Part shown: positions 6,173 to 57,440 of the stretch, in pieces
Numbering within the stretch: the first letter of the stretch is position 1
Layout: each line of letters opens with the position of its first letter
NCBI GenBank assembly: GCA_000993205.1
Contig: LBVU01000004.1
Location: 27,338 to 91,337 of the forward strand
DNA from: Candidatus Woesebacteria bacterium GW2011_GWB1_39_10
GTDB taxonomy: Bacteria > Patescibacteriota > Microgenomatia > UBA8517
Length of the DNA: 64,000 nucleotides
Direction of reading: 5' to 3'
Program-made: the position numbers and the translations under genes
Notes under the pieces: model-generated
What the model was told of the DNA's origin: nothing
The model's input: the letters and a program-made list of their open reading frames with translations, nothing else
The model's database searches: none

Positions 6173-7598
6173 GAATATTAACCCCAGCCGACCAATCGAT
6201 TTCTGGATATTTCTTTAAAATTTCTCTGATTTTCACCTTTAATGAGTCGTACTGTGCCTGAGTTTTACCTTCAAACTTAACTGTAATATACGGCCCATTT
6301 TGGCTAGCGCGGATTATAACCATTTCATCTTTTGTGTCAGCTCTAAATCCATCAATATCCACATATGATGCGTTTGAAAAAATATTTTTAACGTCTAAAC
6401 TAATATTTTCATTAATAAGTTTAAATTTGAGATCGTCAGCAAGTCCTAATTTTATTTCCGGACTTGAGATATATTTAGGGATTTGCCCAACAGCCTCTTT
6501 TAAGGAAAGCTTTTTACGCTTCAAGTAATCAAGAAGTCTTAAAGTTGCAAAAGAAGTATCGTCATGACCGTAAAAGCTATCCATAAAGAATATGTGTCCG
6601 GAAAGCTCCCCCCCGAACGGAGATCTTGATTCTTTAACTTTCGCTTTAATAAAACTGTGTCCTGTAAGCCACATAACTGGTTTACCCCCCGATGAGGTTA
6701 TGACATCTGAAGTCGCTTTTGAACACAACGTGTTAAATATTATTGGGGCGCCTGGCATATATTCCAAGATATCCTTGGCGTAAATTGCAACCAAGACATC
6801 ATTCCATATTAAATTGCCTTCCCCATCGACTATCCCAATACGGTCGCCGTCCGGATCATACGAAACTCCAAAATCCGCCTTTTCTTTTACAACTCTTTTA
6901 GCCAACCTTTCTTGCGCCTCGCGCTCAGTCGGATCTGGCGTGCCTAGCGGGAAATTTCCGTCCAAATTCGTATTTTGTTCAATTACTGTACAGCCGGCCC
7001 TACGTATGATTTCCGGCAAAAACATGCTTGCGGTAGCATTTAAGCCATCGACCACAACCTTCAGACCGCTGTCGGTAAGCGGAATCTTATTAAACAGATC
7101 CTCTACATAAAACGGGAACGCATCCTCTTGTTTGTAAGTCGCTTTTCTATCGAAAGATCTAAATTCTCCCGATTCTGTAATCTTTCTAATTTGTTGCACC
7201 TCATCTGTTAACAAAGTGTCTGAAAACCCAGCTGCCAATTTTAATCCATTGTAATTTTTAGGATTGTGGGAGGCAGTTACCATTGCCCCGCCTTTTGAAA
7301 GATAGTGGTACTGAGCAAAATACAAAATCTGAGAAAGCGTCAGCCCTATATCTATAACGTCAACTCCCGAATCCAAAAGAGCCTTCACAAAAGATTTTTG
7401 GAATTTCTCAGAAGTTAACCTAACATCGCGTCCGACTACTGCCATGCTAATTCTTCTTTCATATAAAAATGTGGCATAGGCTTTACCTAACGTGTAATAA
7501 ACATCTTCATTCAAGTCTTTGTCTACCACACCGCGAATATCGTAACCTCTGAAGATTTCCGGGTTGATATTTTTTACCAGTTTCATTGATGCTGTCAT
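6159..7598 (-). CDS. Phosphoglucomutase/phosphomannomutase (alpha-D-phosphohexomutase)
   Basis: 479 aa. Active-site TASHNP motif and GVVVGRD-like N-terminal region. Real start may be the internal MKLVKN. Confidence 0.8.
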   Translation of the reverse strand: MTASMKLVKNINPEIFRGYDIRGVVDKDLNEDVYYTLGKAYATFLYERRISMAVVGRDVRLTSEKFQKSFVKALLDSGVDVIDIGLTLSQILYFAQYHYLSKGGAMVTASHNPKNYNGLKLAAGFSDTLLTDEVQQIRKITESGEFRSFDRKATYKQEDAFPFYVEDLFNKIPLTDSGLKVVVDGLNATASMFLPEIIRRAGCTVIEQNTNLDGNFPLGTPDPTEREAQERLAKRVVKEKADFGVSYDPDGDRIGIVDGEGNLIWNDVLVAIYAKDILEYMPGAPIIFNTLCSKATSDVITSSGGKPVMWLTGHSFIKAKVKESRSPFGGELSGHIFFMDSFYGHDDTSFATLRLLDYLKRKKLSLKEAVGQIPKYISSPEIKLGLADDLKFKLINENISLDVKNIFSNASYVDIDGFRADTKDEMVIIRASQNGPYITVKFEGKTQAQYDSLKVKIREILKKYPEIDWSAGVNIHALE

Positions 7599-8269
7599 TT
7601 TAATCGTTTAATCATCAACAGGTCAAGCGCGGTAACTAAATCGCTTTTTCTTGTCTTTACTTCAATGTCAATTTCCGACATTCTTTCAATTAGACCCTTT
7701 AATTGTTCTTCCGAATATTTTGAACTTTGAACTTTTAACTTTGCGCTTCTCCAAGTCGGATACGGCATTGAATTTGAATCGACTTTCGCCCAATATAAAT
7801 CACGGAAAAGTTTGGCAATAAGAGTAAAAATAAATTCCGGAGCGTCTCTCTCTATAATCTTATGAAACTCCAGTATAGCTTGTTTGGAATTTCCCGGGTA
7901 GATATGTTCCAAAAAAGTCCAGATGATAACCGGCAATTTAAACTCTTCAATTTTGACATCTTTTGGAAGAGACGAAAGAAGAGTCTTTGGAATATAACCC
8001 TCATGATAAACAATCAGATTGCCCGGAAGATCGGTATATTTCTTATTTAGCCATTCAATTTCTTTTTTTCCCAGTCTTTTAATATCCCTTAGAACAAAGA
8101 ATCTCTCGTTGGAAAAAAGTGAAGTGGAAGATAATGTTTCTTGTAATTTGATAGAAGGATTATCCAAATAGTCAACTTCCCAACTTCTACCGCGTGCAGT
8201 TTCTACAAATTTTTGCAAACGGGCATATGATTTTCTCTCGTCATCACCATGTAAGATTATTGTCTTCAT
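7595..8269 (-). CDS. holA: DNA polymerase III delta subunit-like (HolA), putative
   Basis: 224 aa. N-terminal MKTIILHGDD and the LFSNERFFVLRD motif fit clamp-loader delta subunits. Short, as in reduced genomes. Confidence 0.5.
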   Translation of the reverse strand: MKTIILHGDDERKSYARLQKFVETARGRSWEVDYLDNPSIKLQETLSSTSLFSNERFFVLRDIKRLGKKEIEWLNKKYTDLPGNLIVYHEGYIPKTLLSSLPKDVKIEEFKLPVIIWTFLEHIYPGNSKQAILEFHKIIERDAPEFIFTLIAKLFRDLYWAKVDSNSMPYPTWRSAKLKVQSSKYSEEQLKGLIERMSEIDIEVKTRKSDLVTALDLLMIKRLK

Positions 8270-8289
8270 ATATAAATCGTTTCAAATGT

Positions 8290-8372
8290 TTTATTGTCAT
8301 TGCGAGGCATCCGAAGCAATCTGTCCATGTCAGAGATTGCCTCGTCGCCTACCGCTCCTCGCAATGACACAA
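8290..8372. repeat. Long nested inverted repeat (13-bp perfect outer stem TGTCATTGCGAGG/CCTCGCAATGACA plus an inner GAAGCAATCTG/CAGAGATTGCCTC stem)
   Basis: Seen directly between the holA-like and metallopeptidase-like genes. REP-like element or structured RNA. Confidence 0.55.
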
Positions 8373-8380
8373 GCCCCATA

Positions 8381-8797
8381 TTAATCAAAATTTTCAAAAT
8401 AACGCAGAACAAGCTCGTCTAACTTTTTACGAAAACTTCCTTTTTTTCTGTGAGTGTGGGGAACCAGGGCCCCTGAAAAATTATGAGGGATGTGTGTCAA
8501 CTCATGAAGAATAACCTTATCCTGATTTCTTTTATCCAATTTATCAAAATGTTCAGCCAGTACCTCAATAATATATCCAGGTTCTATCCCCAAGGACCTC
8601 TGCCAAAGAGCCGGCAAGCCCCACGTTCTTGCATATGCCCTAGCTTTGGAATCTGTAGATCTATAAAAAAAGAGACGCTCATACAAAATCCAATCCATTT
8701 TAAGCTCTGTTATCAGTTTAAGTGACCTTTTTGCAATATCCGGTGCATCCAACCATTCAACTGATTTTGAAGACTTCCGCTTTCTTTTTGACCTCAT
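8381..8797 (-). CDS. Putative HExxH zinc metallohydrolase (YgjP/DUF45-like)
   Basis: 138 aa. HELTHIPHNFSG resembles the HExxHxxxHNHS motif of COG1451-type metal-dependent hydrolases. Shorter than typical. Confidence 0.4.
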   Translation of the reverse strand: MRSKRKRKSSKSVEWLDAPDIAKRSLKLITELKMDWILYERLFFYRSTDSKARAYARTWGLPALWQRSLGIEPGYIIEVLAEHFDKLDKRNQDKVILHELTHIPHNFSGALVPHTHRKKGSFRKKLDELVLRYFENFD

Positions 8798-9120
8798 GAC
8801 AACTCCAAGGATATCACACTTTATATACTTCAGCTCCCTCTTTTACAACCTCTTGAGTTTTGAGACCAACCACTTCGCCTTTATTTGCTGAATCCTTCTT
8901 TTCATGCTCTACCTGGATAGAATCGACATTTTGTTCAAACAAAGTCTCTCCGTCCCTCATAAATTTAACTTCATCGTTAACAGAAAGAGTTCCGTCAAGT
9001 TCGATTATGGCAACCCCTAATTTATCGTAATAGTGAGTAACTTTACCTATTTTAAAAATAATTAATCACCCCAGTTCTAAATTCGAATATCGAAAATCGA
9101 ATGTTTAAAATTTAAAACAT

Positions 9121-9660
9121 CTAAGCCTTCGTATTTGTTTTGGATTTGATATTTCGTGCTTCGGATTTACTTTCCCCCAATTTAAACGCATGTGTTAAAG
9201 CAATTGCAAGAGCGTCGGCAGCATTATCAAAATGAGTTTTTTTATGCGCGCCGCTTTTTACACGACTGCCTAGAATCTTTCTAATATGTGCTTGTACTTC
9301 TTTTTTGTTAGCTCTTCCTGAACCGGTAATCATTTTTTTAATTGTTCCGGGCGCGTATTCTTCGACATGAACATTTGTTTTACTTGCCGCCAGTAACATC
9401 ACACCTTGAGCTTGACCAACCGCTATTACTGTTTTTGCATTCGTTGCAAAAAATATTTTCTCAAAAACAAAAACATCAGGTTTATGTTTTTTAATGAGAG
9501 CAACAATTTCTTCAAAAATGAGGTCCAGTCTGCGTTCCTTAAGAAGAGTTTTACTTGTTTCGATCAACCCCCATGTGACGACTTCGTTTCCCTTTCCGTT
9601 TAAACGAACAAGTCCGAAACCGGTTGTGGCCGTACCGGGATCTATTCCTAAAATAAGCAT
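9121..9660 (-). CDS. ruvC: Holliday junction resolvase RuvC, with a repeat-derived C-terminal extension
   Basis: ILGIDPGTATTGFG RNase-H-fold N-terminus from the internal ATG at 9658-9660. The tail ESKSEARNIKSKTNTKA is encoded by TTCG/ATTTG repeat DNA. Confidence 0.8.
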   Translation of the reverse strand: MLILGIDPGTATTGFGLVRLNGKGNEVVTWGLIETSKTLLKERRLDLIFEEIVALIKKHKPDVFVFEKIFFATNAKTVIAVGQAQGVMLLAASKTNVHVEEYAPGTIKKMITGSGRANKKEVQAHIRKILGSRVKSGAHKKTHFDNAADALAIALTHAFKLGESKSEARNIKSKTNTKA

Positions 9661-9852
9661 AACTAAATTATACCCTAACAAAAAACGAAAAGGGCAGGTA
9701 TCTGTCGATAAATAAAATTTGACAGAACCTGCCCCAATAATTTCTAAGTGCCACAAACACCTTGTCCTGCCGCATAAGCTTTGGCATGGCGGTATTTATG
9801 GCACCTATTCGCCAATTACCTTCCGGATAAAAATTCCGCAGGTATTTGGCAA

Positions 9853-9926
9853 GATGGCCGGGAAGGATTTGAACCTTCGATCTCTCAGATCCTATCTGAG
9901 CGCGTTAAACGACTACGCTACCGGTC
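9853..9926 (-). tRNA. tRNA-like, anticodon AGG (Pro-type?). One A-C mismatch in the acceptor stem; possible pseudo-tRNA
   Basis: Hand-folded cloverleaf. Acceptor TGACCGG/CCGGCCA, D-stem GCGT/ACGC, anticodon stem CTCAG/CTGAG with loop ATAGGAT, T-arm GAAGG-TTCAAAT-CCTTC. Confidence 0.4.
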
Positions 9927-9928
9927 AA

Positions 9929-10027
9929 AAGCGGGTGGAAGGATTCGAACCTTCGACCTTCTAACCATCTATGCCGTTCGGCACAGATTAAACAAGTTAA
10001 CTGCTCCACCAGTTTGAGCTACACCCG
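9929..10027 (-). tRNA. Atypical 99-nt tRNA-like gene. Perfect acceptor, D and T arms, but a ~25-nt insertion forms an 8-bp hairpin in the anticodon/variable region
   Basis: GCGGGTG...CACCCGC acceptor, GCTC/GAGC D-stem, GAAGG-TTCGAAT-CCTTC T-arm. The internal TCTGTGCC-GAAC-GGCATAGA hairpin leaves no canonical anticodon arm. Confidence 0.45.
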
Positions 10028-10144
10028 CACAAAAAAATTAAAGAACTAAAAGGAAACCCTCCGCAGGATATTGTTTCTCAGGGTTTCCTTGACCAGCCGG
10101 TTGTGTCGAATGACAAAACCGTTCCCATAGATATCCCTATGGTA

Positions 10145-10217
10145 AAGACGCCGCAAGGATTTGAACCTTGGATCCAGGTGCTGCGCACCTGAGCCTTGCC
10201 AGACTTGGCTACGGCGC
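10145..10217 (-). tRNA. tRNA-Cys(GCA), putative
   Basis: Acceptor GGCGCCG/CGGCGTC (one G-U), anticodon stem CAGGT/ACCTG with loop GCGCAGC, T-arm CAAGG-TTCAAAT-CCTTG, discriminator U. C33 is unusual. Confidence 0.55.
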
Positions 10218-10274
10218 CGAAAAACACCAGAACACGAGTCTACAAAAATTTAAAAACTTTGTCAATACATTTAG

Positions 10275-10544
10275 TTATTTTCTCTTTGAAGATTTTTTGA
10301 TTTCCTTAACCTCTTTACCGAAAAAATAAATATAAAGAATGTCCAAAATTCCCATTGTGTTTATTAATAATAACGCAATAAACCAGGGCTTGCTGTCCTG
10401 CTTTGCAGCCTTCCAAAGAGCCCAACCTTTCCAGAAAAGACTCCAGATCAAAACGGGTACCAAAAGTAAAGATAGTCCAGACATCATGTTTTCCCAAAGC
10501 GCTCCAGGATACCAATAGTTGCCATAACTATAATTCCACATCAA
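10275..10544 (-). CDS. Small hypothetical membrane protein
   Basis: 89 aa with two hydrophobic helices and a Trp-rich N-terminus. No recognisable domain. Confidence 0.35.
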   Translation of the reverse strand: MMWNYSYGNYWYPGALWENMMSGLSLLLVPVLIWSLFWKGWALWKAAKQDSKPWFIALLLINTMGILDILYIYFFGKEVKEIKKSSKRK

Positions 10545-24961: not shown

Positions 24962-25897
24962 TCACAGAAAGCTCTTAATCTCTTCAAAACTCTTTGCCTC
25001 CATTAATTTTTGCCTAAGAATGCTCGCCCCTTTAAAATTATTGATATACATTTTGAAAAATTTCTTGATTATGGCGAAATTTTTGGTTCCTCCCCAAGTT
25101 TTTTCAAATAGTTCCATATGTCTAAGAAGCAATTTGATATATTCCGCTTTCGTATGTTCCCCTGAATCTTTTGAGAACACCCATGGATTTACAAAAATTC
25201 CCCGCCCTATCATTACCCCATCCACTCCGTATTTTTGGGCTTTTTTGACCACCTCGATGTAACTTTTAACATCTCCGTTTCCAATAATTATAGTATTGGG
25301 AGCGATTTTATCTTTAATTTTTACAATCTCGCCTATTTCTTCCCAATCAGCGGGGAAAGCGGACATTTGTTTTGCGGTTCTTGCGTGAATAGTTAACGCT
25401 GCCAAATCTTGTTTTAGAAGGAACGTGCACCAATCGCGTGCAATATTTTCATTTTTGCCAAGTCTGGTTTTAACACTCACGGGAAGAGCGCCTGCCCCTT
25501 TTTTAACTGATTTGATAATTTCGCCTGATAAATCGTAATTTCCTATGAGTCCAGCTCCTGCCCCACGTTTCATCACCTCCCGAACCGGACAGCCCATATT
25601 TATATCAACTCCGTCAAAGCCAAGGTCTGCTACAATTTTCGCAGCCTTTTTCATATTCCGAGGGACCGTTCCCCAAATTTGAGCAACAATAGGGTGTTGA
25701 TCTGAAGTAAATGTCAGTTTTCTTAGTGGAATCCCGTGGGAGTTGAAGACTAAGCCGTCACTGCTTACAAACTCAGTGAAGAAGACATCAGGCCTTCCCG
25801 CTTCCAATACAACCTGCCTAAAAACATTATCTGTAACATCATCCATCGGAGCAAGAACGGTAAATGGCTTATGTAGCTCTAACCAAAAATTATTCAT
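24962..25897 (-). CDS. dus: tRNA-dihydrouridine synthase
   Basis: LAPMDDVTDNVFR and DINMGCP motifs of the Dus TIM barrel. Start taken at the internal MNNFW so the overlap with the upstream gene is only 8 nt. Confidence 0.8.
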   Translation of the reverse strand: MNNFWLELHKPFTVLAPMDDVTDNVFRQVVLEAGRPDVFFTEFVSSDGLVFNSHGIPLRKLTFTSDQHPIVAQIWGTVPRNMKKAAKIVADLGFDGVDINMGCPVREVMKRGAGAGLIGNYDLSGEIIKSVKKGAGALPVSVKTRLGKNENIARDWCTFLLKQDLAALTIHARTAKQMSAFPADWEEIGEIVKIKDKIAPNTIIIGNGDVKSYIEVVKKAQKYGVDGVMIGRGIFVNPWVFSKDSGEHTKAEYIKLLLRHMELFEKTWGGTKNFAIIKKFFKMYINNFKGASILRQKLMEAKSFEEIKSFL

Positions 25898-26948
25898 GAA
25901 GTTCCAGACTTTTAATTTCCGGTAAACTCTTGCCGATAACTCCCTGCAAGTCGCCATACATTCCGTGTGTGTGATCTATAACCTTTCTAATTTCTTTTTC
26001 CTGTCTGGCCCACTTTACATTAAAATACCTTTTTTCTTTCTCTAATTCTTCCTGCAAATTACTAAATGCGTCCACTATTCCCTCTACCCTGTTTTTAAAT
26101 TCCGTCCCTGTTAAATATTGATAAAGAATTTTCATTTTCTCGTCTTTGCCTTCGCTTGAAGTCCTTTCGTGGAACAAACTCACCAGATTGAAACGTAAGG
26201 ACCAGGAAAGCGGAATAAAATGTTTCCAACTTACTATCCAAACTCCGTCACGATAAGCAAAGCTGTCCACCCCCTCGGGTAAATTAACTGTAACAAGAAC
26301 TGCCAGGTCGGCCTTGGCCTGACGCTGATCTTCTTTTAATTTCGAAATCCAGCCATTACTCCATTCGGCATTCTTGCTTTCCCAAAGAATTTTACCGCAA
26401 GATCTACCCAGTTTATCGACCACCTCTTGCTCCACATCTGCCCCTCTTTGCCCCTTTTTAACTTCCAAAATTTTATCCGTAGGGAACTCTTCTCTAAGTT
26501 TTGTTTCTAGTTCAAGTTCGAGCGTTTCTCCTTGGGTTTGTTGCGAACCTTGTTGGATCTTTGTTTTGAGGGATTCGATTTGATCCAGGGCTTGTTGAAG
26601 TTTATTGTCCTTTTCCAAATCTTTTAGTTTATGTTCTTCGTCCGCTTTTTGTCTGACCTCAACCTTAATTCTTTCTTCTTCATCCATTAGTCTCTTCTTC
26701 ATTTGAATTTCGCGTTCCTCGTCTTTCTCGCGAAGTTTTTTGATTTCATCCAAAAGTTCGGAAATTTGATTTGTAAGTTTTTCTACGCGCTCCTTTGTTT
26801 CTTCTTCGCTTTTCCTTTTTACTTCTTCCAGTTCTTCTTTATGCTTTGACAACAAGGTTTGACTAACCTGTTCTTCAATTTCATGCTTTAGAGCCTCCGT
26901 AGCTTCAAATTCCTTGCCGCAATGAGGGCATTTAATTGTATTTTTCAT
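25890..26948 (-). CDS. Zinc-ribbon plus long coiled-coil protein with a C-terminal globular domain (DUF2130-like)
   Basis: 352 aa. N-terminal CPHCGKEF...C zinc ribbon, ~180 aa of E/K-rich coiled coil, C-terminal KGQRGADV region. Confidence 0.45.
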   Translation of the reverse strand: MKNTIKCPHCGKEFEATEALKHEIEEQVSQTLLSKHKEELEEVKRKSEEETKERVEKLTNQISELLDEIKKLREKDEEREIQMKKRLMDEEERIKVEVRQKADEEHKLKDLEKDNKLQQALDQIESLKTKIQQGSQQTQGETLELELETKLREEFPTDKILEVKKGQRGADVEQEVVDKLGRSCGKILWESKNAEWSNGWISKLKEDQRQAKADLAVLVTVNLPEGVDSFAYRDGVWIVSWKHFIPLSWSLRFNLVSLFHERTSSEGKDEKMKILYQYLTGTEFKNRVEGIVDAFSNLQEELEKEKRYFNVKWARQEKEIRKVIDHTHGMYGDLQGVIGKSLPEIKSLELHE

Positions 26949-30491: not shown

Positions 30492-31220
30492 ATGGCTATT
30501 ATGGCTAGAAATTATTCCAGGCTGGCATCGGTTGAAGAAAGAAGGAATCTAAGAAGAGCAATCACATACATTGTTCTTGCAATTTCAGGTCTTGTACTTC
30601 TCTTCTTTTTGGGAATACCGGTAATCGGAAGATTCACCGCTTTTGTTTCTGATCTTGGAAAAAGTAATAAGCCGATTACAAACACTGACAAGACTCCACC
30701 CGCACCACCAAGATTCAATACTTTCCCGGATTTTACAAACCAAAACCAAATAAGTCTTGCTGGCACCACCGAGTCGGGGACCACGATTAAATTGACATTT
30801 AACAGAAACGTAATAGATACTCTTGCCGACAAAGACGGTACCTTTACGTTTAGCAACCTGACCTTAAATGATGGCTACAATATTTTTTTTGCCACCTCTA
30901 CCGACGCTGCCGGGAATAATAGCCAACAAACACAAGAATATAAAATAGTTTTTGATAACAAACCCCCCGACCTGACAATAGAAAGCCCCGGTGACGGCTC
31001 AACTTTTTTTGGATCAAAGCAGAGGCAAATTACAATTCAGGGAATATCTGAAAGCGGAGTTCAAATAACAATTAACGATAGAGTCGTTGTTGTCGATGAT
31101 AATGGTAAATTTCAATATACATTAACTCTCAACGAAGGAGAAAATAAATTTACAATTAAAGCGACCGACCAGGCAGGAAACTCCATCGAAAAAGACCTCA
31201 TGTTAAGTTTTTCTCCTTAA
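30492..31220 (+). CDS. Membrane-anchored protein with Ig-like (Big-type) beta domains
   Basis: 242 aa. N-terminal TM, then repeated T/S-rich beta-strand segments (TIKLTFNR..., KFTIKATDQAGN). Confidence 0.45.
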   Translation: MAIMARNYSRLASVEERRNLRRAITYIVLAISGLVLLFFLGIPVIGRFTAFVSDLGKSNKPITNTDKTPPAPPRFNTFPDFTNQNQISLAGTTESGTTIKLTFNRNVIDTLADKDGTFTFSNLTLNDGYNIFFATSTDAAGNNSQQTQEYKIVFDNKPPDLTIESPGDGSTFFGSKQRQITIQGISESGVQITINDRVVVVDDNGKFQYTLTLNEGENKFTIKATDQAGNSIEKDLMLSFSP

Positions 31221-32373: not shown

Positions 32374-32903
32374 GACAGAAAGGAATGCAAAGACTGCATT
32401 ATACTAAAAACTATGTTTCTGGTTTTAAAAAAAGTAATTAAAAATTTCCCAAAGGGAAAAAAAATAATTTTTAAAAGCGTCGGTCTTTTTCCTTCCTCAA
32501 TATTTGCTTTCGCGTGCAGATCTGAATAGAAATTAATTTTCGAGATATATTCATGAAGATTGTCGGCAGTATTGTGAATTATTGGGGTATCGATCATTCC
32601 AACTCTGCCAGTTGACGGTTTCCAAACTTCATGAACACATCTTGCCCATTTCCCGGTTCCTTTTTTTACTAAACGGATAATTTTATCGTTCCCAAAATAC
32701 TGACCCAAAAAATAATTTTTCCTTATAAATTGATAGCATGAAAAATCATCGGATGTTTCAATTTTGAACTCTTTTAAAATTGTCTCATCTTTGTCCAAAA
32801 ATAACACCCAATCAGCTTTAGATTTTTTGAGTAATTTGTTTCGTGATGCCGCAAAATCTGTAATATTTTTTTTATTTAAGATAGCGGTCGTGAAGTTTTT
32901 CAT
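32340..32903 (-). CDS. Truncated GT2-family glycosyltransferase fragment (lacks the N-terminal nucleotide-binding half)
   Basis: 187 aa. Begins at the ASRNKLL...ADWVLFLDKDE (DxD) segment, which normally sits ~90 aa into GT2 enzymes. Confidence 0.4.
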   Translation of the reverse strand: MKNFTTAILNKKNITDFAASRNKLLKKSKADWVLFLDKDETILKEFKIETSDDFSCYQFIRKNYFLGQYFGNDKIIRLVKKGTGKWARCVHEVWKPSTGRVGMIDTPIIHNTADNLHEYISKINFYSDLHAKANIEEGKRPTLLKIIFFPFGKFLITFFKTRNIVFSIMQSLHSFLSWSKQWIIQNA

Positions 32904-35164
32904 TTAATTGATTTAAATACCTGTATACCCCCATCTACCCAAATTTCGCGTCCGGCTGCAATCTGTCCGGAACTACCTTCTTCAACTATTGTATACCGCA
33001 CTCCTGCATCACTCTTAATTTTTGCGCCTCTAATTGTTAATAGATAAATATAGTTATTTGCAAAATTATTTTCGAATTGATCGTTTACCCCAATCCTTGA
33101 GATTGAAAAATCTGACCCTTTTGAATCTTTAATAATTTCATTGACCGTTGAAAGTTGAACCGAGTACGGCGGAGGGCTTTGGGAATAATCGGTAATAAAT
33201 TTATCCCGGTAAAACCAATCGGTGCTGACTAAATTCCATATTCCGAAACTTCCGATTAAAAACGTAAGAATCGCCAAAACAATATTATTTTTAAAAGTTT
33301 TTACCAAAATGTAGCTTGCCATGATTAACGGGACTGGGAAAATCGCCAGATAATAATGTTCTGGAGGGGCTCCGTGCATGAATAACCCAAGATAAGGGAT
33401 GATTAAATTAATCAAAAGTAAAATAAAAGCCGTTTCTTTATTTTTGTCGCGAAGGGGCCTAAAAATCCAAAAGGCGGATCCGAAGGTTACAAAGGCAAAT
33501 AATGCGATCGATAAAGTATTTGAATTCGGAACAAACGAGTCTTTAAAAAACTGGTATACAGAGTAAATGTTTTGCGACAAGACTTTCAAATTAACACTAT
33601 TCTTGGGATACAAACCAAAAAAACCAAGTACCCGGTAGGGGATCCATGTTATAAGTTGAAGTGTTATTGCAAATTTGTTTGATATCTCATAAATGATGAA
33701 GGTAATATTGGGGATCAGGAAAGCTAAAAAGAAATATATTACGTATTTTAATTTTGGGCTGACTTTAAAATAAATAAAACATACGATAGTTGCCGGAATT
33801 AAAAGAAACGGGCTTGGAAAAAAATTCATCGAAAGCCCCAAAATCAGTCCTAAAACACCTAAACTTTTACCTTTATCATTAATCGACTTTAGTAAATACC
33901 AAAGATATGGGAAAAATATTATAGCGGCCGGTGCATTATAACGTGAGTTTCTGGTCAACACGATCCATGCTGGGGAAACCGCCAACAGGAAAGAGGAAAT
34001 CAATGCAATTTTTTCGTTAAATAATTTTTTAACATAGTAGTAGCAAACAAGGATTGAAACCGATTCGACGACCGCCCAAAAAATATTGATTACACTAGGA
34101 TTAAATCTTGCAAAAAAAAGAAGAACGGTATAGATCCAATATGAAATTGGCGGAATAAAAAACCATTCGTGTGAGGTTCTGGGGCCTATCAAAAATGTCC
34201 GTGTTCCATGGATAATATTCCAAACGTTCATATAGTCTGTTCCCATCTCACCATTTAAAACAAGGTTGGGTATTAGTCTATAAAATCTCAAAAATGTTCC
34301 AAGGATCAATATTCCTAAAACCATTAGCGTACTTTTTGAAAATCTGGCAAACATTTCAACTATCAAAGCAGGTAAAAGGCCGTAGTGTTTTTTAAAATAA
34401 TAATATCTGCTATGTGCAAATATTTGCTTTATTTGATCGGAACTCTTCGGCGTCCCTTTAGATTCCATGTGTATTGCTTCGGATTTTGAATCAAAATAAA
34501 TTTCATGTCCGTTCTTTTTTAGACGTTTCGAAACATCGTTTTCTTCAAAATATAAAAATAGATTCTCGTCAAATTTATCAATTTTTTCGTAGACCTCTTT
34601 CTTAATCATGAAGGCGCCAAGTTGCCCCACTTCTACTTTCCGAGAAGTTCGCCTATTCCAACTATCCATCAGGTAATCTTTAACTATTGGATTGACGGGA
34701 AAGATTTTGTTTATGAAAGATAGAAAAAATATTCCTCTAACCGGGGTTAATTCTTTAGTCGCTTCGGGAGTAAATCTCCCCGAAATGTTTTTAATACGTG
34801 GAACCACCATCCCAATTTTGCTGTCTTTTTTCAAGATATTGTAAATATTTTTAAAGGATTGGAGATCGATAAGAATATCCGAGTCAATCGAAAAAATAAA
34901 CTTTCCAACCGCGTGCCTAATCCCGAAATTACGCCCCGCCCCCCATCCTAAATTTTTTGAAGCAGAGATGTATTTAACCCAAGAATATTTTTTCTTAACA
35001 GTATTTTCCTCAAGTTTTTCACCATTATTGTCCACCAAAATAAATTCACCAGATTTAAATTTCGATTTGATTATTTTTAGTTTATCTAGACACTTGTAAA
35101 CTTCACCGCCGTGCCCGAAATGCCCAACAACCACCGATACTTTAATCGTTTTTCGAAGCTTCAT
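32900..35164 (-). CDS. Fusion glycosyltransferase: N-terminal GT2 catalytic domain plus C-terminal multi-TM GT-C/PMT-ArnT-like domain
   Basis: 754 aa. VSVVVGHFG...ILVDNNG...GWGAGRNFG...SIDSDILID GT2 motifs, followed by ~12 TM helices. Confidence 0.55.
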   Translation of the reverse strand: MKLRKTIKVSVVVGHFGHGGEVYKCLDKLKIIKSKFKSGEFILVDNNGEKLEENTVKKKYSWVKYISASKNLGWGAGRNFGIRHAVGKFIFSIDSDILIDLQSFKNIYNILKKDSKIGMVVPRIKNISGRFTPEATKELTPVRGIFFLSFINKIFPVNPIVKDYLMDSWNRRTSRKVEVGQLGAFMIKKEVYEKIDKFDENLFLYFEENDVSKRLKKNGHEIYFDSKSEAIHMESKGTPKSSDQIKQIFAHSRYYYFKKHYGLLPALIVEMFARFSKSTLMVLGILILGTFLRFYRLIPNLVLNGEMGTDYMNVWNIIHGTRTFLIGPRTSHEWFFIPPISYWIYTVLLFFARFNPSVINIFWAVVESVSILVCYYYVKKLFNEKIALISSFLLAVSPAWIVLTRNSRYNAPAAIIFFPYLWYLLKSINDKGKSLGVLGLILGLSMNFFPSPFLLIPATIVCFIYFKVSPKLKYVIYFFLAFLIPNITFIIYEISNKFAITLQLITWIPYRVLGFFGLYPKNSVNLKVLSQNIYSVYQFFKDSFVPNSNTLSIALFAFVTFGSAFWIFRPLRDKNKETAFILLLINLIIPYLGLFMHGAPPEHYYLAIFPVPLIMASYILVKTFKNNIVLAILTFLIGSFGIWNLVSTDWFYRDKFITDYSQSPPPYSVQLSTVNEIIKDSKGSDFSISRIGVNDQFENNFANNYIYLLTIRGAKIKSDAGVRYTIVEEGSSGQIAAGREIWVDGGIQVFKSIK

Positions 35165-51124: not shown

Positions 51125-51583
51125 CTAATGTGTGGAGGACCTCTGAACTGCTATTTCCAGTCTATCGATACCATACTTTTCAAATTCCTTCTCATATTTT
51201 TCATAAATCTTGTGAACCCTTTCAGGAAGACAGAAATTCTTTTTGAGCCCTTCTTTTTCCTCCTTAGTTATACTTTTAAAAAAGTCTCTTTTTCCCATTC
51301 TTGTTTGCAATTCTTCCCAAAAGACATCTTCATGAAAAATTTCCATAATCTTATCTTCTTCCTTCCCCAAGGAGTTGGAAACTATTAATTCACCTTTAAA
51401 TTTTTCAAAAAGATCCTCATATCCGAGCTTTTCAGAAAGCTCCAGGAAATATTTTAGTAGTTTTTCGTGCCTGCTTGGGCTTTTGTACTCTTCCCCATTA
51501 TATTCGTCGACTGCTTCACGAACCCAACTGCCAACAATCAAAGTTAATATCAGTTCTTTGAGTTCACCTTTCGTAAATTTCAT
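51125..51583 (-). CDS. Hypothetical acidic helical protein, last gene of the R-M-like operon
   Basis: 152 aa with no recognisable motif. Start overlaps the specificity-subunit stop by 1 nt. Confidence 0.4.
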   Translation of the reverse strand: MKFTKGELKELILTLIVGSWVREAVDEYNGEEYKSPSRHEKLLKYFLELSEKLGYEDLFEKFKGELIVSNSLGKEEDKIMEIFHEDVFWEELQTRMGKRDFFKSITKEEKEGLKKNFCLPERVHKIYEKYEKEFEKYGIDRLEIAVQRSSTH

Positions 51584-52977
51584 TAATTTTCGTCTCCTTT
51601 TTCAATCATCTGCTCGACTTTTCTTTTCGCTTCTTCAAGCAATTCTTTGGATTTTTTGCGTGCTTCATGAGATTTTTTAACCAAGTCTGCAATTTTTTGT
51701 TGAGTTTCCTTTGGTAAAATTGGAATTAATATATTCTTTATTTGTTCGGGCTTCCAGTGAACGATAATAGACCCACCAGCATCCCTTTCTGCCTGCATCT
51801 GCCCTACCAGAGAGCTGATACAAAGGGATAAATACTCAGGTTCAATATCACCTTTTAACCTAAGCCTTAAAATCCCCCCAGAAATTATTCCTTCAATCGG
51901 TTCTTTTACAACATAAGAAATTCCCGGGGTAGCATCTTTCGTTAGTAAAATTTCTCCAACTTTTGGTTCATAATCTGATCTTAATTTTTGATAAAGCTCG
52001 TCTGATAAATACTTTTGATCTTTTGCTTCAATTCCAAATTTAGTTAAACTACTGACGCGAATAAATAGTTTTCCTACTTCTTGATATGCTTCGCTACCTG
52101 GCTCAAGACCTTTTTTAAATGTAATTAATTCTCCTAAGAGTTTGGCGTTGTTAGTTTTTATCTTCTCTAAGATTATTTGATATTTTGGCTGGAAGTAATC
52201 AGCATCAACTCTATCAACGTTTCCTGTATCGGAATAATTAACAATGTAACTAAGATCTTCCAGAATTTTATGATCTTTTAATCCCAATTCATCCAAAAGT
52301 AAATTTTCTGCTTGTTGATAAAATTCTTCAGACTGATCGAGTTGAGATTTAGATTTAAGAAAATAATGCTTCACTTTGTCGTTTGTTTCATTGTCTGGTA
52401 TAGGAATAAGTAGGTCTCTCAAACTGTCTTTAATAATGGTTGGTTGGCCAGAACCTTGGAGATGTCTTAAAATTAATTTTCTTCCAACGTTTGAGTTAAT
52501 AAAAGTAACAATAAATTCATTTAAGCTAGAACTTTTAAGTTTGATTAAGAAAATGTTGTCTGCGAGCGTCGCTTTATCTTTAACACTTGGCATAATATAA
52601 GCTTTTCCAAGGTATTCTCCAGTTTTTGAAATCAACACCTCACCTCCTTGAAGTTTGCTCTTTTTTAAAAATTCGTATGTGGCCTTATCTACATACCTAA
52701 TATTTTCGTTAAAATTATTATTATCTAAGTTTTGAATTCTTATCCATTTTGCGAAGTTAATACCGTCAGTCACATTAACATTTTGTTTCAATCTCGCGAA
52801 ACTGCCGTTAGACGTATAATCCGTAAGTATTTCAATTAAATCTCCGAATTCTTCATGTGGTATCGACTTTATTGCCAAATTTAAACTTAAACATTCCGGA
52901 TCGTAGTAATCTGCGTCGATTCGGTTGACACCCTCAAGTTGAGATTTTTGGATTATTGAAAAAGTCATTTTTAGCAA
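51583..52977 (-). CDS. hsdS: Restriction-modification specificity subunit (HsdS-like, two target-recognition domains)
   Basis: 464 aa. Duplicated R(I/V)DADY(Y/F).P-led TRDs separated by a conserved helical spacer, C-terminal coiled coil QQKIADLVKKSHEARKKSKELLEEAKRKVEQMI. Confidence 0.75.
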   Translation of the reverse strand: MLKMTFSIIQKSQLEGVNRIDADYYDPECLSLNLAIKSIPHEEFGDLIEILTDYTSNGSFARLKQNVNVTDGINFAKWIRIQNLDNNNFNENIRYVDKATYEFLKKSKLQGGEVLISKTGEYLGKAYIMPSVKDKATLADNIFLIKLKSSSLNEFIVTFINSNVGRKLILRHLQGSGQPTIIKDSLRDLLIPIPDNETNDKVKHYFLKSKSQLDQSEEFYQQAENLLLDELGLKDHKILEDLSYIVNYSDTGNVDRVDADYFQPKYQIILEKIKTNNAKLLGELITFKKGLEPGSEAYQEVGKLFIRVSSLTKFGIEAKDQKYLSDELYQKLRSDYEPKVGEILLTKDATPGISYVVKEPIEGIISGGILRLRLKGDIEPEYLSLCISSLVGQMQAERDAGGSIIVHWKPEQIKNILIPILPKETQQKIADLVKKSHEARKKSKELLEEAKRKVEQMIEKGDEN

Positions 52978-53687
52978 CTAACAGCTTTGCTTGTTAAAGT
53001 AAAATCCTTAATATCCAATGATTGATTATTTAATGTAAAGTCCTTATAAAATCTCTGGGAAGAAGTCTGAACTTCTACGTTTACTTTGTATTTTCCTCTT
53101 TGTAGGGCAAATTGTGGATGTTTAAAATCGTAGGCATAACTCCAATCATTAAAACCATAACAAGGATTCTCATTATGAAACTTAACTGCTACGGCCATTT
53201 TGCCTTCTTGTAATTCATCCAAACTTTTTGATGGCGATACGGAGGCAATAACCCCTTCAGGGAACTTCGAGATATCAATTTTCCTGTCTGAGGTAATTGG
53301 CTCCCCCTTGCTTGACCACCTGCCAAAAAAACTGCACAAAGTATTCCCATCTGTATTTAAAATCTTTAATTTTACTTTACAATATTCTGCCGATCTCCTA
53401 CGAAAAATAAAAAACCAACTTGGGTTGTCTAAATTTATAATATTTATATGTACGAACTTAAGAGTTCCATTTGGTGATTCGTCTTCTGAACCTAAACATA
53501 TTTTTATATTTGGTTTAGTAAAATAGTCATTAAAATAGATTCCGAGAAAAGAAAGTAAGAACCCGATATATACAGAAAAATAATCTACAGGTTTTGTGGA
53601 AACACTAATAGTCAAAAAGGCAAACACAACAATCAATGTAACCCAAAATAAATATTTTAAATTATCAAAAAAGTTGTTCATTTCCAA
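52971..53687 (-). CDS. Hypothetical two-TM membrane protein with a beta-rich extracytoplasmic domain, embedded between the methylase and specificity genes
   Basis: 238 aa. N-terminal helices LFWVTLIVVFAFLTISV and VYIGFLLSFLGIYF. Overlaps both neighbours (10 and 7 nt). Confidence 0.45.
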   Translation of the reverse strand: MEMNNFFDNLKYLFWVTLIVVFAFLTISVSTKPVDYFSVYIGFLLSFLGIYFNDYFTKPNIKICLGSEDESPNGTLKFVHINIINLDNPSWFFIFRRRSAEYCKVKLKILNTDGNTLCSFFGRWSSKGEPITSDRKIDISKFPEGVIASVSPSKSLDELQEGKMAVAVKFHNENPCYGFNDWSYAYDFKHPQFALQRGKYKVNVEVQTSSQRFYKDFTLNNQSLDIKDFTLTSKAVSC

Positions 53688-55654
53688 AACCCAAATCCTT
53701 CATTTTTGGCAAACTCAATAAACTTATCTGCGATTTCATCAAGATCGTGATCAACCGCTGGATCGCCTTTTGGATTTGTGACAATTTGACCTTCTTCATC
53801 TTTTTTGTAAACATAATCACCACTATTATCCTTACCACTCTTTTTGGAAACTGCCATAAATATTGGATAATCTTTTGGTACTTCTTGTTTTTCCTCCCAT
53901 TTTTGCAAGAATAATACAGAAGTCTTTGTTCCCGTGTGAGGTTTAAAAGTGTTAACATTAAGCCCAACCACCGCCAAAATTCTTGCTTTATCAAAAAGCC
54001 AACTCCTAATATAACTCATATTTGTGTTATTCAAGACCCCCTGGGGAAGAACTATTGCTAAGCGACCTCCGGGTTTAACCAAATTTAAAGCCCTCTCAAT
54101 AAATAGGATGTGGCGTTCGGATCTATCTTTTAATTTACCTTTATCATTTTTTGCAAGCTCGTACTCGTTAAGAAGCTGTCTCTCACGAATTTCACCCGCG
54201 AATGGGGGGTTTGTTAGAACAACATCAAAATCAAAGAACTTAAAATTGTCTTGATTATTTCTGTCTTTGTCATAATCATTAAATTTGTGAAGTCTTTCAA
54301 GTAGCTCCGCCCTCGCTCTCAATTTCTCCGAATCATCACCTTTCCATTCCTGAGGATTGAGCGAATTTAATCTAAAAATATGTGATCTTCCATCGCCGGC
54401 AATTAACATTAAAGCTCTGGAAATTTTTACAGGTTTATCATCAAAATCAATTCCATAAATATGTTTTCTTGCAAAGTCAGATTTTGTCTCGGCTGACTTC
54501 TCCGACATAAAATTATCCCAAATCCATTGCATTGCGTGAATTAAAAACCCACCTGAACCAGATGCGGGATCTATCACATATTCATCTTCTTTTGGGTTTA
54601 ACATTTTGACAGCCATATCAATTACATGGCGTGGGGTAAAATATTGACCTTTCTTACCTTTGGCAACATCGGGGAGTAGATATTCAAAAGCACGGTCAAT
54701 AATTCCTAAATCGGCATCGAGTAGTTTTACTTTTTCTAGTTGCCCTACACAAACTGATAAATGGGATGGAGAAAGTTGAATCTTTTCGCCATCGACAAAC
54801 ATTCCCGGCCATTCTTTTGTGGAACTTTCAAAAAGTCGTTCTATGTTATCGTAGGTAACTTGCGGGTTTGTTGATTGCCTAAATAGGAGTTCGCCTTTCC
54901 TATCTCGTGCGTATTTTTCATCATAAAGTTTCGCATAAATTAACTTAAAAATTTCATTAAACGAGTCAACTCCCGCTCCAGCCAATACGAGTTCTTCCAA
55001 GACTTTAATGATTTTTACTAAATCGTATTGTTTTTCCAGTTGATCCAAAGTCAGTTTTGCATCCTGAACATCTTCTATCGTTTGATCAACTCTAGGGATA
55101 TCACGAAGTGTGTTTTCAAAATTGTGAGGATACGGTCTATAAAGGATGACCCTAACAATACCGTTTGATAAAACTCCAATTGGAGCACCTTCAGCATTAA
55201 GATAACTTTTAATTTGCTCAATTCCGTCTTTTGCTTCGGGACTTTTTACCTCAATTATAATTTGGGGTGTTTCCTTGTCTTCCTTGTAGACGACAATATC
55301 AGCAGCCTTTTCACGAACTTCACGTCCAAAATTAACTTCTTTTTCGACAGCGATCCTGTCTAGTGGATAATTGTAAAATTTGGTAAGTTTAAAAAGCCAA
55401 AGCTGGCGAACAATTTCTTCCGGCTCACCAATTTGTTTTTCTTCATTCCAAATAGATAGATCTATATTTCTTTTGAGACACTTTAAGAAAAACCTACCCT
55501 TTTCTTTCTCAAATATATCGAGAGATTCTGAAGGTTTTATATTTTCAAATTCGGTTAAACCATACTGAACTTCGGGGTTTTTAAAAATTTTATTTATAAT
55601 TTCAGAGTTTAACTTTGTATCCATTTTAGTTTGATTCACTGGCAACCTTACCAA
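53678..55654 (-). CDS. Fusion protein: N-terminal PD-(D/E)xK nuclease domain (HSDR_N-like) + gamma-class N6-adenine DNA methyltransferase (HsdM-like)
   Basis: 658 aa. ADIVVY...IIIEVKSPE (D...EVK nuclease motif) in the first 180 aa; MTase motif I VIDPASGSGGFLIHA and motif IV TNPPFAGE. About 130 aa longer than canonical HsdM. Confidence 0.7.
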   Translation of the reverse strand: MVRLPVNQTKMDTKLNSEIINKIFKNPEVQYGLTEFENIKPSESLDIFEKEKGRFFLKCLKRNIDLSIWNEEKQIGEPEEIVRQLWLFKLTKFYNYPLDRIAVEKEVNFGREVREKAADIVVYKEDKETPQIIIEVKSPEAKDGIEQIKSYLNAEGAPIGVLSNGIVRVILYRPYPHNFENTLRDIPRVDQTIEDVQDAKLTLDQLEKQYDLVKIIKVLEELVLAGAGVDSFNEIFKLIYAKLYDEKYARDRKGELLFRQSTNPQVTYDNIERLFESSTKEWPGMFVDGEKIQLSPSHLSVCVGQLEKVKLLDADLGIIDRAFEYLLPDVAKGKKGQYFTPRHVIDMAVKMLNPKEDEYVIDPASGSGGFLIHAMQWIWDNFMSEKSAETKSDFARKHIYGIDFDDKPVKISRALMLIAGDGRSHIFRLNSLNPQEWKGDDSEKLRARAELLERLHKFNDYDKDRNNQDNFKFFDFDVVLTNPPFAGEIRERQLLNEYELAKNDKGKLKDRSERHILFIERALNLVKPGGRLAIVLPQGVLNNTNMSYIRSWLFDKARILAVVGLNVNTFKPHTGTKTSVLFLQKWEEKQEVPKDYPIFMAVSKKSGKDNSGDYVYKKDEEGQIVTNPKGDPAVDHDLDEIADKFIEFAKNEGFGFWK

Positions 55655-56243
55655 TTACCTTTCCCAAAAGTCTTGTTTCCGGGTATATCGGAATATTCTG
55701 ATATTTTGGATTTTCAGGTTTCAAATATATTCTACCATTTGAATTAATCAAACGCTTAATTGTTGTGCCATCGTTATCACGAGCAAGCACAACATCTCCA
55801 TTTCTAAATTCCTTAGCTTGCTGGATAATAACCTTGTCTCCGTCTTTTATACCCGCATCCGTCATAGAATCCCCTGTAACATCAACAATAAAAACATTTT
55901 GCGCTGTCTTCATGTCTTCAACTTCCTGCCAATCAAGATTTTCAAACGCATCTTTATATGGGCCAGCTGCAGTAAAACCTAAACTTGGGATAAGCGGTCT
56001 TGCCGATAAAATTTCAAATCCTTTATCTAAAATCCTTATGCCACGAGCCGTTCCTTCCTCTCTTTTGATAAAACCTTTTCTTTCCAAAACACTGAGAACA
56101 TCTATTACCGCTTGATTAGAAACCACGTCTAATTCTTCACGCAAATCCGCTAAGGTGGGAGGGTAACCTGAATTTTTAATTGAAGTGTGAATAAATTTTA
56201 AAACCTGTTTTTGCCTTTTTGTTAATTTTTGGACAGAAACCAT
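55626..56243 (-). CDS. lexA: LexA repressor (S24 peptidase)
   Basis: 205 aa. N-terminal winged HTH (LTKRQKQVLKFI...GYPPTLADLREEL), S24 catalytic Ser in VTGDSM and Lys in the GKVIGKV region. Confidence 0.85.
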   Translation of the reverse strand: MVSVQKLTKRQKQVLKFIHTSIKNSGYPPTLADLREELDVVSNQAVIDVLSVLERKGFIKREEGTARGIRILDKGFEILSARPLIPSLGFTAAGPYKDAFENLDWQEVEDMKTAQNVFIVDVTGDSMTDAGIKDGDKVIIQQAKEFRNGDVVLARDNDGTTIKRLINSNGRIYLKPENPKYQNIPIYPETRLLGKVIGKVASESN

Positions 56244-56253
56244 ACTTATTTAT

Positions 56254-56271
56254 ACTGACTATTTAGTCAGT
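56254..56271. promoter_or_regulatory. Palindrome ACTGACTA-TT-TAGTCAGT 10 nt upstream of the lexA start (candidate LexA autoregulatory box)
   Basis: Perfect 8-bp arms read directly. Confidence 0.45.
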
Positions 56272-56285
56272 TGTCAAGCTGTAAT

Positions 56286-57440
56286 TTAGTGGATTTTACG
56301 AAGAAAAGCAGGGATTTCGAATTTCTCACCAAAAACATCATCATCACCCGAATCATCAGAATTTTCCGGCGGTTCGGTATCCCTATTATTTTGATCGTCT
56401 TTTCTGTTTATAACAGGCTCACTTACAACGCCCTGTACGATTGGTTTTTGAACAGGTTTGCTCATTTGGGCTAAACGCGAACGGGTTTCGTCAAAACCTG
56501 TGGCAATTACAGTAATTCTGACTTGATCGTTTAGTCCTTCTTTAATTACTGCTCCAAAAATAACGTTAGCGTCAGGGTCGGCCGAGCTCGATATAATCCT
56601 CGCCGCTTCATCAACCTCAAACATTGTCAAATCATTTCCACCGGCGATATTAAAGAGAACCCCCCGCGCTCCCTCGATAGATAAATCAAGTAATGGCGAA
56701 GAAACAGCCGCACGTGCCGCCATTTGTGCCCTGTTTTCGCCGGCTCCGGTTCCAATACCGAGAAGGGCGCTTCCTGCGTCTTTCATAATTGTCTTGACGT
56801 CCGCAAAGTCTACGTTCACCAGTCCCGCAGTAGTAATAATATCCGCTATACCTCCAACTGCTTGGCCCAAAACCGAATCAACCACTTTAAACGCCTCAAG
56901 GAGGGTCATTTTTCGGTCGATGACATCCATTAAGCGTTGGTTTGGAATAACTATTAGTGTGTCTGTTGACTCCTTAAGTTTTTCAATTCCGTCCTCGGCT
57001 GCAACAGCGCGTCTCGTACCCTCAAACGCAAATGGCTTGGTAACAACTCCTACGGTTAGGGCACCGCTTTCTTTGGCCAGTCTTGCGATAACAGGCGCTG
57101 CCCCAGTACCGGTTCCACCGCCCATTCCCGCCGTTACAAAAACCATATCGCTATCAATTAAAAGTTCTTTTATTTTTTCTACCGACTCTTCCGCTGCTTG
57201 CGCGCCGATTTCCGGATTTCCTCCGACTCCAAGACCTTTTGTAAGTTTTTCTCCAATCTGAAGTTTTGTCGGAGCTTTATTTTGAAGAAGCACTTGCGCA
57301 TCGGTATTTAATGCAATAAATTCAACTCCGCTAATTGTACCCGCATCAATCATTGAAGAAACCGCGTTTCCTCCACCACCACCGACTCCAATTACTTTTA
57401 TTTTAGCGATTCTAGCTGAATCAGGTTTAACAAGTGCCAT
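56286..57440 (-). CDS. ftsZ: Cell division GTPase FtsZ
   Basis: 384 aa. [13 protein letters not shown] tubulin signature. C-terminal EIPAFLRK conserved peptide. Confidence 0.92.

Follow-up and report, generated by a model that had tools for sequence, protein, structure and literature searches.

We found that a 64-kb window of the genome of Candidatus Woesebacteria bacterium GW2011_GWB1_39_10, a member of the Candidate Phyla Radiation (CPR; Patescibacteria), contains a lexA gene directly followed by the genes of a putative restriction-modification (R-M) system. The window is the whole stretch of DNA that was analyzed (64,000 nucleotides, positions 27,338 to 91,337 of the forward strand of contig LBVU01000004.1, assembly GCA_000993205.1), and positions below are counted from its first letter. 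Five intact open reading frames (ORFs) lie on its minus strand in the order lexA-RM-X-S-Y, RM encoding a predicted fusion of nuclease and methylase, S a specificity subunit, X a predicted membrane protein and Y a small protein. The best explanation for this arrangement, which we consider reasonably probable, is a LexA-controlled Type IIB-like operon that also carries cargo genes. Comparisons were made with 80 metagenome loci whose RM homologues have 57-80% identity and with one further locus, taken from a genome; these are referred to below as related loci. The features of the operon, from the promoter to the last gene, are the following (lengths in amino acids, aa).

56272..56277, minus strand: -35 hexamer TTGACA of the lexA operon promoter; most related loci have a similar hexamer equally placed with respect to the operator.
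56255..56270, minus strand: candidate LexA operator, the perfect 16-bp palindrome CTGACTAAATAGTCAG, which fills the 17-nt spacer between the -35 and -10 hexamers.
56249..56254, minus strand: -10 hexamer TATAAA, 17 nt past the -35 hexamer.
55626-56243, minus strand: lexA, 205 aa, self-cleaving SOS repressor by TIGR00498 and Pfam.
53678-55624, minus strand: RM subunit, 648 aa from ATG, predicted N-terminal PD-(D/E)xK endonuclease and gamma-class N6-adenine methyltransferase.
55094..55423, minus strand: endonuclease domain of RM (HSDR_N_2), predicted catalytic residues E94, D109, E125 and K127 in the numbering of the 648-aa protein.
53825..54703, minus strand: methyltransferase domain of RM, with motif I DPASGSGGFL and motif IV NPPF.
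52971-53681, minus strand: X, probable cargo gene, 236 or 238 aa, two predicted transmembrane (TM) helices and an immunoglobulin (Ig)-like beta-sandwich.
51583-52968, minus strand: S, specificity subunit with two target-recognition domains (TRDs), ATG start.
51125-51583, minus strand: Y, 152 aa, mildly acidic, probable trailing cargo or neighbor gene.

The five genes are packed tightly: a single nucleotide separates the lexA stop from the ATG of RM, RM and X share an ATGA overlap (-4 nt), X and S are 2 nt apart, and the start of Y overlaps the stop of S by 1 nt (-1). An earlier note on this DNA had described tightly packed minus-strand genes right after lexA, and these junctions confirmed the description. 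RM could also start from a TTG at 55654, giving 658 aa, the NCBI protein being of 648 aa, and S from a TTG at 52977, giving 464 aa. No convincing minus-strand terminator was found inside the operon, where the single minus-strand terminator-like match is weak and lies within the RM coding sequence. The arrangement is that of one operon with a sigma-70-type promoter, in which the palindrome CTGACTAAATAGTCAG in the spacer is most likely bound by LexA, as judged from sequence.

The lexA product is recognized as LexA by TIGR00498 (151.5 bits against a cut-off of 110.95) and by the Pfam families LexA_DNA_bind and Peptidase_S24. Comparing 46 LexA proteins, that of the window and those of cassette-linked homologues, the Ala-Gly site is kept in 44 to 46 of the 46, and the serine (GDSM) and the lysine (KR) in all of them. 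Since these residues are conserved, the LexA proteins of the cassettes appear to be cleavable and not degenerate repressors. The palindrome CTGACTAAATAGTCAG is the single site of its kind in the window, and of 44 related lexA promoters at least 35 have a homologous palindrome between the -35 and -10 hexamers. The outer bases of these palindromes covary symmetrically (CTGAC..GTCAG, CCGAC..GTCGG, TAGAC..GTCAT), which fits a dimer-binding site. A position weight matrix built from 36 sites, when run over 1.17 Mb of fetched DNA, gave strong matches at lexA promoters only, including about 10 lexA promoters outside the training set. Considering the 1-nt junction, the predicted operator inside the promoter and the conserved adjacency of lexA and RM described below, control of the R-M operon by LexA is strongly supported as a prediction; the earlier suggestion that the module may be co-transcribed with, or controlled by, LexA was strengthened by the same three observations.

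In 18 of 43 related loci (L019-L033, L065-L090), we also noticed an exact copy of the DnaA-box 9-mer TTATCCACA that precedes the lexA start by 19-129 nt. It does not occur in the 42-nt spacer between ftsZ and lexA of the window. The background in 80 loci is 29 boxes in 708 kb, and 18 of the 29 fall within the short regions upstream of lexA. This 9-mer may represent a DnaA input into the lexA-RM promoter, or the site of another factor.

The RM product combines in one ORF the Pfam domains HSDR_N_2 (aa 78-187, E 3.5e-21, 75.8 bits) and N6_Mtase (aa 318-610, E 9.8e-40, 137 bits), the latter region also matching Eco57I (62 bits). The motifs ADIVVY, IIIEVKSPE, DPASGSGGFL and NPPF, on which the proposal of a nuclease fused to a gamma-class N6-adenine methylase had been founded, were all confirmed, and the proposal agrees with this domain composition. 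No Pfam match to HsdM_N was obtained in RM at E <= 0.1, the N-terminal region being occupied by HSDR_N_2, so that the alternative of a canonical HsdM_N domain at this end of the protein, which the earlier note had raised, found no match in Pfam. The best match of RM in the PDB is the RM subunit of BsaXI (8w0p, E 2e-28), with the methylase aligned, the N-terminal nuclease aligned more weakly, and the alignment stopping at about residue 628 of BsaXI. When a profile of the N-terminal ~200 residues was used, including homologues of 36-46% identity, residues 15-111 of BsaXI were its sole PDB match (E 1e-6), and no HsdR structure in the PDB was matched.

In BsaXI, residues E73, D90, E105 and K107 are essential for cleavage as revealed by mutagenesis and are conserved across Type IIB enzymes (PMC11997821). 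These four residues align with E94, D109, E125 and K127 of RM. Neither the tetrad nor NPPF varies among the 22 homologues of alignment A1 (67-83% identity), and the tetrad is equally invariant in five homologues from viral contigs, which are 41-49% identical by tblastn and 36-46% identical over the N-terminal domain (alignment A3). Such invariance across distant homologues argues for selection on the nuclease activity of RM. The RM family is large, with more than 7,736 proteins at E <= 1e-10; among the top 120 homologues listed, a single Pfam architecture is found throughout, the lengths are mostly of 641-656 aa (one is of 588 aa), and many CPR lineages are represented.

Results for S were in line with the description of an HsdS-like subunit with two TRDs, as we found two Methylase_S stretches in Pfam and a full-length match to Specificity_I of PADLOC (153 bits). 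HSDR_N, N6_Mtase and Methylase_S are the families that had been expected for the enzyme, and HSDR_N_2, N6_Mtase and two Methylase_S stretches were found. Against the PDB, S gave weak matches to HsdS structures, and the S subunit of BsaXI was not among the matches. Between S and its counterpart in the related locus L001, the conserved regions are kept and the TRDs have diverged.

We looked for a helicase or HsdR and found none among the 11 ORFs of at least 450 aa within the window, while HsdR-sized ORFs adjoin only about 5 of the 80 related loci. On a 27-kb plasmid of Trichormus and on an IncF plasmid of Klebsiella, an S gene comes immediately after an RM-like methylase gene, and the flanks examined contain no annotated HsdR. 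As these plasmid homologues of cultivated bacteria pair with S with no HsdR annotated nearby, they support the autonomy of RM and S. On plasmid pAQ6 of Picosynechococcus PCC 7002 (L118, positions 6971-10510), an 1179-aa "N-6 DNA methylase" is homologous to RM and has no separate S gene adjoining; this protein probably represents a Type IIB-like enzyme of the single-chain RMS form, which exists among Type IIB enzymes (PMC11997821). Picosynechococcus PCC 7002 is cultivable and transformable, which makes this enzyme a possible experimental model.

Compared by description, BcgI, the archetypal Type IIB enzyme (A2B), resembles the system of the window in having an A subunit that fuses nuclease and methylase, a separate S-like B subunit and a bipartite site. 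The A subunit of BcgI is of about 640 aa, near the size of RM, and its B subunit is of about 340 aa versus 461-464 aa for the HsdS-like S. In BsaXI (8w0p; PMC11997821), as in RM, an N-terminal PD-(D/E)xK nuclease is followed by a helical connector and a gamma-class N6A methylase, and its two-TRD S subunit is a separate protein, like S of the window. BsaXI works without a translocase, for which no gene was found in the window either. Most likely, RM and S function like a Type IIB (RM)2S enzyme, and the Type IIB or BcgI-like reading is supported by sequence, the activity being predicted. Type IIB enzymes are defined by cutting both strands on either side of a bipartite site, so that a short fragment is excised, and cuts of this kind would be expected of RM and S if the reading is true.

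The linkage of lexA and RM was counted in the 76 metagenome loci with usable upstream sequence, the sampling having started from RM. A LexA homologue lies upstream on the same strand in 50 of them and is directly adjacent in 47, with gaps of -32 to +41 nt. In 16 of the 76 its place is taken by a 110-aa UPF0758_N (RadC N-terminal-like) gene, and in 10 by something else. The genes upstream of lexA vary among loci, one of which (L011) keeps the lexA linkage with different upstream genes. The coupling of such a system to LexA had been regarded as unusual, and this view did not hold within CPR, where it is the majority state in a family of more than 7,700 members. The loci headed by UPF0758_N (L030-L052, L055, L063, L073) often contain a 69-aa HTH_3 protein and/or an unannotated protein of about 392 aa, and the UPF0758_N gene may be an alternative regulatory head of the cassette.

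Two lexA loci were found via Y and not via RM (L004 and L009), and in both an R-M gene stands 3-7 nt past lexA. In L004 (positions 5351-6998), a type II N6_N4_Mtase and an MvaI/BcnI-type nuclease occupy the place of RM-X-S within the same ftsZ-lexA...Y-ileS frame as in the window, and a 36-aa remnant of the 3' end of S is kept. Considering this remnant and the common frame, a type II system appears to have replaced RM-X-S in this locus. In L009 and L010, a different N6_Mtase and S follow lexA. Predicted co-transcription with lexA is a conserved trait, and R-M cassettes turn over downstream of lexA. Distant RM-S pairs on viral contigs and plasmids are without lexA, so that the lexA wiring looks like an elaboration of the CPR clade. 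A phage origin of the cassette was also considered and rejected, viral contigs holding only such distant pairs without lexA.

The interval between RM and S is highly variable, as revealed by the 64 related loci that hold both genes. The distance from RM to S has a median of 816 nt and is below 100 nt in only 4 of the 64, and one or more same-strand ORFs stand between the two genes in 57 of the 64, which means that about 89% of loci have the slot filled. Clustering by sequence places the 70 cargo ORFs (80 aa or longer) in 47 clusters, 35 of which are singletons. They include DUF3800 (the commonest), NYN, an OLD-family AAA_15 and TOPRIM protein, Trypsin_2, GIY-YIG, the PemK toxin, DUF4145, KAP NTPase, SLFN/AlbA_2 and a DDE transposase. 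Among their PADLOC matches are PD-T7-1, PD-T7-4, PD-T7-5, PDC-S45, PDC-M35A and LmuA-like and PifA-like proteins.

The gene in this slot of the window, X, had been described as a 238-aa membrane protein with two TM helices, in agreement with the helices predicted at residues 3-27 and 33-55 of its AlphaFold2 model (predicted local distance difference test score, pLDDT, 92.9), which adds an Ig-like beta-sandwich for which no specific structural relative was found. Neither X nor Y matched anything in Pfam, NCBIfam, PADLOC, PHROGs or the PDB, and family searches of their homologues in Pfam, PHROGs and PADLOC gave nothing. Only 3 close homologues of X were found among 5.8 billion proteins, all flanked by RM and/or S: one locus has an RM fragment, X and S (L001), one has RM and X with the contig ending after X (L002), and one has a 141-nt remnant of the RM 3' end followed by X and S (L003). 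A profile search extended X to 456 remote clusters, and remote members lie outside R-M loci, alone beside recombinase or integrase genes.

Across X and the beginning of S, the L003 scaffold matches the window with 99.86% identity, and it diverges abruptly 141 nt before the RM stop, an unrelated minus-strand ORF standing instead of RM (L003 1-224 compared with the window from 53822 onward). Either this is a strain variant that has lost RM, or it is an assembly chimera.

For Y, the earlier description as an acidic protein of 152 aa was borne out, if mildly, by its composition (33 D+E versus 28 K+R). Its 13 homologues are all from CPR and occur in varied contexts: before ileS and after a type II R-M system (L004), downstream of a DUF3800 gene, where it overlaps a Y-family polymerase gene (L005 and L006), after a HEPN/nucleotidyltransferase pair (L007 and L008), and between NYN and DUF4145 inside a lexA-M...S locus (L009 and L010). 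Its neighbors are of the same kinds as the genes that fill the slot between RM and S. In L001, which retains RM-X-S, a DUF2130 gene and an AHSA1 gene stand in the place of Y. Considering these varied contexts and its absence beside RM-X-S in L001, Y is not a component of the R-M system. The possibility that Y is an SOS gene, suggested by its lexA and Y-family polymerase neighbors, did not find support, as no operator was found upstream of the operon of the Y homologue Y151 and the polymerase in L005 and L006.

A 352-aa ORF on the minus strand of the window (25890-26948) has 71% DNA identity to the DUF2130 gene located after S in L001. This family is therefore present elsewhere in the window genome, but in the cassette region of the relative.

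X and Y are probably exchangeable cargo, that is, auxiliary defense or exclusion genes, and not enzyme subunits. The expectation that the membrane protein and the trailing small protein belong to the module as integral parts was thus not upheld, X standing in a hypervariable cargo position and Y being found also away from R-M genes. Their association with R-M genes had been proposed as something to look for in other genomes, and it was partly found: X is beside RM and/or S in all 3 close relatives and Y lies in the R-M loci L004 and L009, while Y and the remote X homologues also occur outside R-M loci.

Several observations weigh against a Type IIB-like, LexA-controlled operon, and part of them would fit a Type I system reduced to its M and S subunits, an alternative that we consider unlikely. 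Here RM would be an orphan methyltransferase, or would work with an HsdR encoded elsewhere, and its HSDR_N-like domain would be structural or vestigial. Source databases label the RM homologues "Type I Restriction Enzyme", "N-6 DNA methylase" or "type I restriction enzyme M protein", and PADLOC files RM as MTase_I, that is, a Type I methyltransferase; S resembles the HsdS of Type I systems, and the best NCBIfam matches of RM and S are MAD2 and MAD5, which act with separate effector proteins. Moreover, the search for HsdR covered the window and the related loci, less than the whole genome, the remainder of which (the contig is of 553.7 kb) lay outside it. The AlphaFold2 model of full RM, built with 22 close homologues, had a pLDDT of 52 and was not used, the nuclease fold resting on sequence. 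In BsaXI, the RM subunit is of 916 aa and includes at its C-terminal side a knob and a paddle, which are also needed for cleavage (PMC11997821), whereas the 648-aa RM lacks them, only about 50 aa remaining after the methylase domain. In this last respect RM differs from BsaXI, while the fusion, the catalytic tetrad, the separate S, the lack of an HsdR in the window and the relationship to BsaXI in the PDB speak for the Type IIB architecture proposed by the earlier note. On the contrary, a reduced Type I system is hard to reconcile with an RM without HsdM_N, with a catalytic tetrad invariant across distant homologues, and with cassettes that have no neighboring HsdR in the window and in most of the 80 loci, nor any annotated in the shown flanks of two plasmids. 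The single-chain 1179-aa homologue without a separate S gene speaks against it as well, single-chain RMS enzymes being known for Type IIB. The earlier statement that this is not a classical Type I system agrees with the missing HsdR in the window and the missing HsdM_N in RM.

The regulatory side has its own counterevidence. No such palindrome was found upstream of other genes of the window, so that a wider SOS regulon for this LexA finds no support within the window, and about one third of the related cassettes have a UPF0758_N gene (sometimes with a helix-turn-helix protein), another gene or no gene upstream, LexA being not obligatory. The adjacency to lexA could even be without regulatory meaning if the region downstream of lexA were an insertion hotspot and the R-M genes had a promoter of their own. 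This we consider very improbable, although three different R-M types follow lexA (window, L004, L009), the 36-aa S remnant of L004 shows that a cassette was replaced at this site, and the sequences of lexA and RM contain several weak promoter-like matches. Indeed, with gaps of -32 to +41 nt an independent promoter would have to lie within the lexA coding sequence, lexA and RM stay adjacent in 50 of 76 loci although the genes upstream differ, and the promoter-like matches (28, versus 17.8 +/- 4.6 in shuffles) include none that is conserved. A further alternative, that X or Y is the true effector of a multi-component defense, for example X as a membrane-disrupting abortive-infection protein licensed by RM and S, appears quite improbable to us. 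It would agree with the translational coupling of X between RM and S and with the presence of X beside the cassette RM and/or S in all three close relatives. There are also precedents, as PrrC is an embedded effector regulated by the Type I complex EcoprrI (cited in bioRxiv 10.1101/2024.10.26.620412), and in the defense system MADS (methylation-associated defense system) deletion of mad5 is lethal unless mad2 or mad3 is deleted too (bioRxiv 10.1101/2023.03.30.534895). Nevertheless, 47 unrelated families share the slot among the 64 loci, and in 4 of these loci fewer than 100 nt separate RM from S, so that no particular cargo seems to be required by RM and S; in addition, remote homologues of X are found on their own beside recombinase or integrase genes, L001 keeps RM-X-S without having Y, and equivalents of MAD6-8 are absent.

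Coming back to the LexA-controlled Type IIB-like operon with cargo, it could work as follows. LexA autorepression would keep lexA-RM-X-S-Y at a homeostatic basal expression, and upon DNA damage RecA-stimulated self-cleavage of LexA would raise the expression of the operon. RM and S would assemble like BsaXI into (RM)2S, in which the two TRDs of S would read a bipartite site. Host DNA would be marked at adenines by the methylase domains, and DNA lacking this mark would be cleaved by the N-terminal PD-(D/E)xK domains with no need of an ATP-driven HsdR motor, the cut positions being, like the activity itself, predicted. X, as a beta-sandwich protein anchored in the membrane, would be co-expressed as cargo together with Y, with whatever putative function each may have. 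The cassette is probably a real, damage-inducible defense, and of a kind that is very common in CPR and not a one-off.

We also put forward, more tentatively and with less than even confidence, a broader reading in which LexA of CPR and the Type IIB-like RM and S would form a conserved "carrier" operon whose RM-S interval captures and swaps single-gene defenses. Damage caused by infection or restriction would then turn on restriction, methylation and lineage-specific auxiliary defenses together.

The ingredients are each known, namely Type IIB RM and S enzymes, LexA autoregulation and defense genes embedded in hsd loci. A comparative study of LexA in Patescibacteria may already mention an hsdMS operon under LexA control. 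Our literature search, the coverage of which did not include that study, found no description of this combination of ingredients or of its prevalence in CPR, nor of a link between lexA and R-M genes in these bacteria. The study on the LexA network of Patescibacteria (Sanchez-Osuna, Barbe and Erill 2017, Environ Microbiol 19:3465) is cited in PMC8565304. For BsaXI, neither control by LexA nor embedded cargo has been described, which sets it apart from the operon of the window. By analogy, the closest precedents for the cargo appear to be defense genes located within Type I loci, PrrC of EcoprrI being an example. In EcoprrI-PrrC and in the rlo genes of Campylobacter, unrelated defense genes are found among hsd genes and co-expressed with them, and the RM-S interval behaves alike; those loci have HsdR and a plain HsdM, whereas in the window the slot lies between an RM fusion and S, under a predicted LexA promoter.

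A change of defense output by a DNA-damage signal is known from CapH/CapP of the cyclic-oligonucleotide-based antiphage signaling system (CBASS), a conceptual likeness. In the SOS restriction alleviation of EcoKI, damage lowers restriction (PMC11109961), while the wiring of the window would raise the expression of both activities. What distinguishes the window from both cases is that here a canonical LexA is the first gene of the R-M operon. MADS resembles the window in having a regulator gene before the methylase gene and other genes between M and S (bioRxiv 10.1101/2023.03.30.534895). Membership in MADS was rejected, as MAD2 scored 318.7 versus a cut-off of 720 and MAD5 199 versus 400 (NCBIfam), and MAD6-8 are absent, the operon ending with Y and then ileS. 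MAD6, MAD7 and MAD8 are mandatory in the model of the MADS authors (bioRxiv 10.1101/2023.03.30.534895).

If our reading of the enzyme is true, a very large family now labeled "Type I M" or "N-6 DNA methylase" consists of HsdR-independent Type IIB-like restriction enzymes, which could supply new bipartite-site Type IIB specificities. LexA of CPR bacteria would be wired directly to defense, and the RM-S interval would be a place to mine new defense genes, considering that 35 of the 47 cargo families are singletons and many are unannotated. CPR bacteria are abundant, have small genomes and are mostly without CRISPR, restriction-modification being thought to be their main defense. For such organisms, the carrier operon would, if true, represent an SOS-triggered modular immune cassette.

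In the window, the operon is preceded by ftsZ, ftsA, ftsQ and murG and followed by ileS and ftsW. The GC content dips to 0.32-0.33 across X and S, compared to about 0.40 in the flanks. A separate region of low GC (0.33-0.38), between positions 31000 and 41000, contains glycosyltransferase-type genes, among them one encoding a 754-aa protein with Glycos_transf_2 and PMT_2 (32900-35164), and is probably a cell-envelope glycosylation island.

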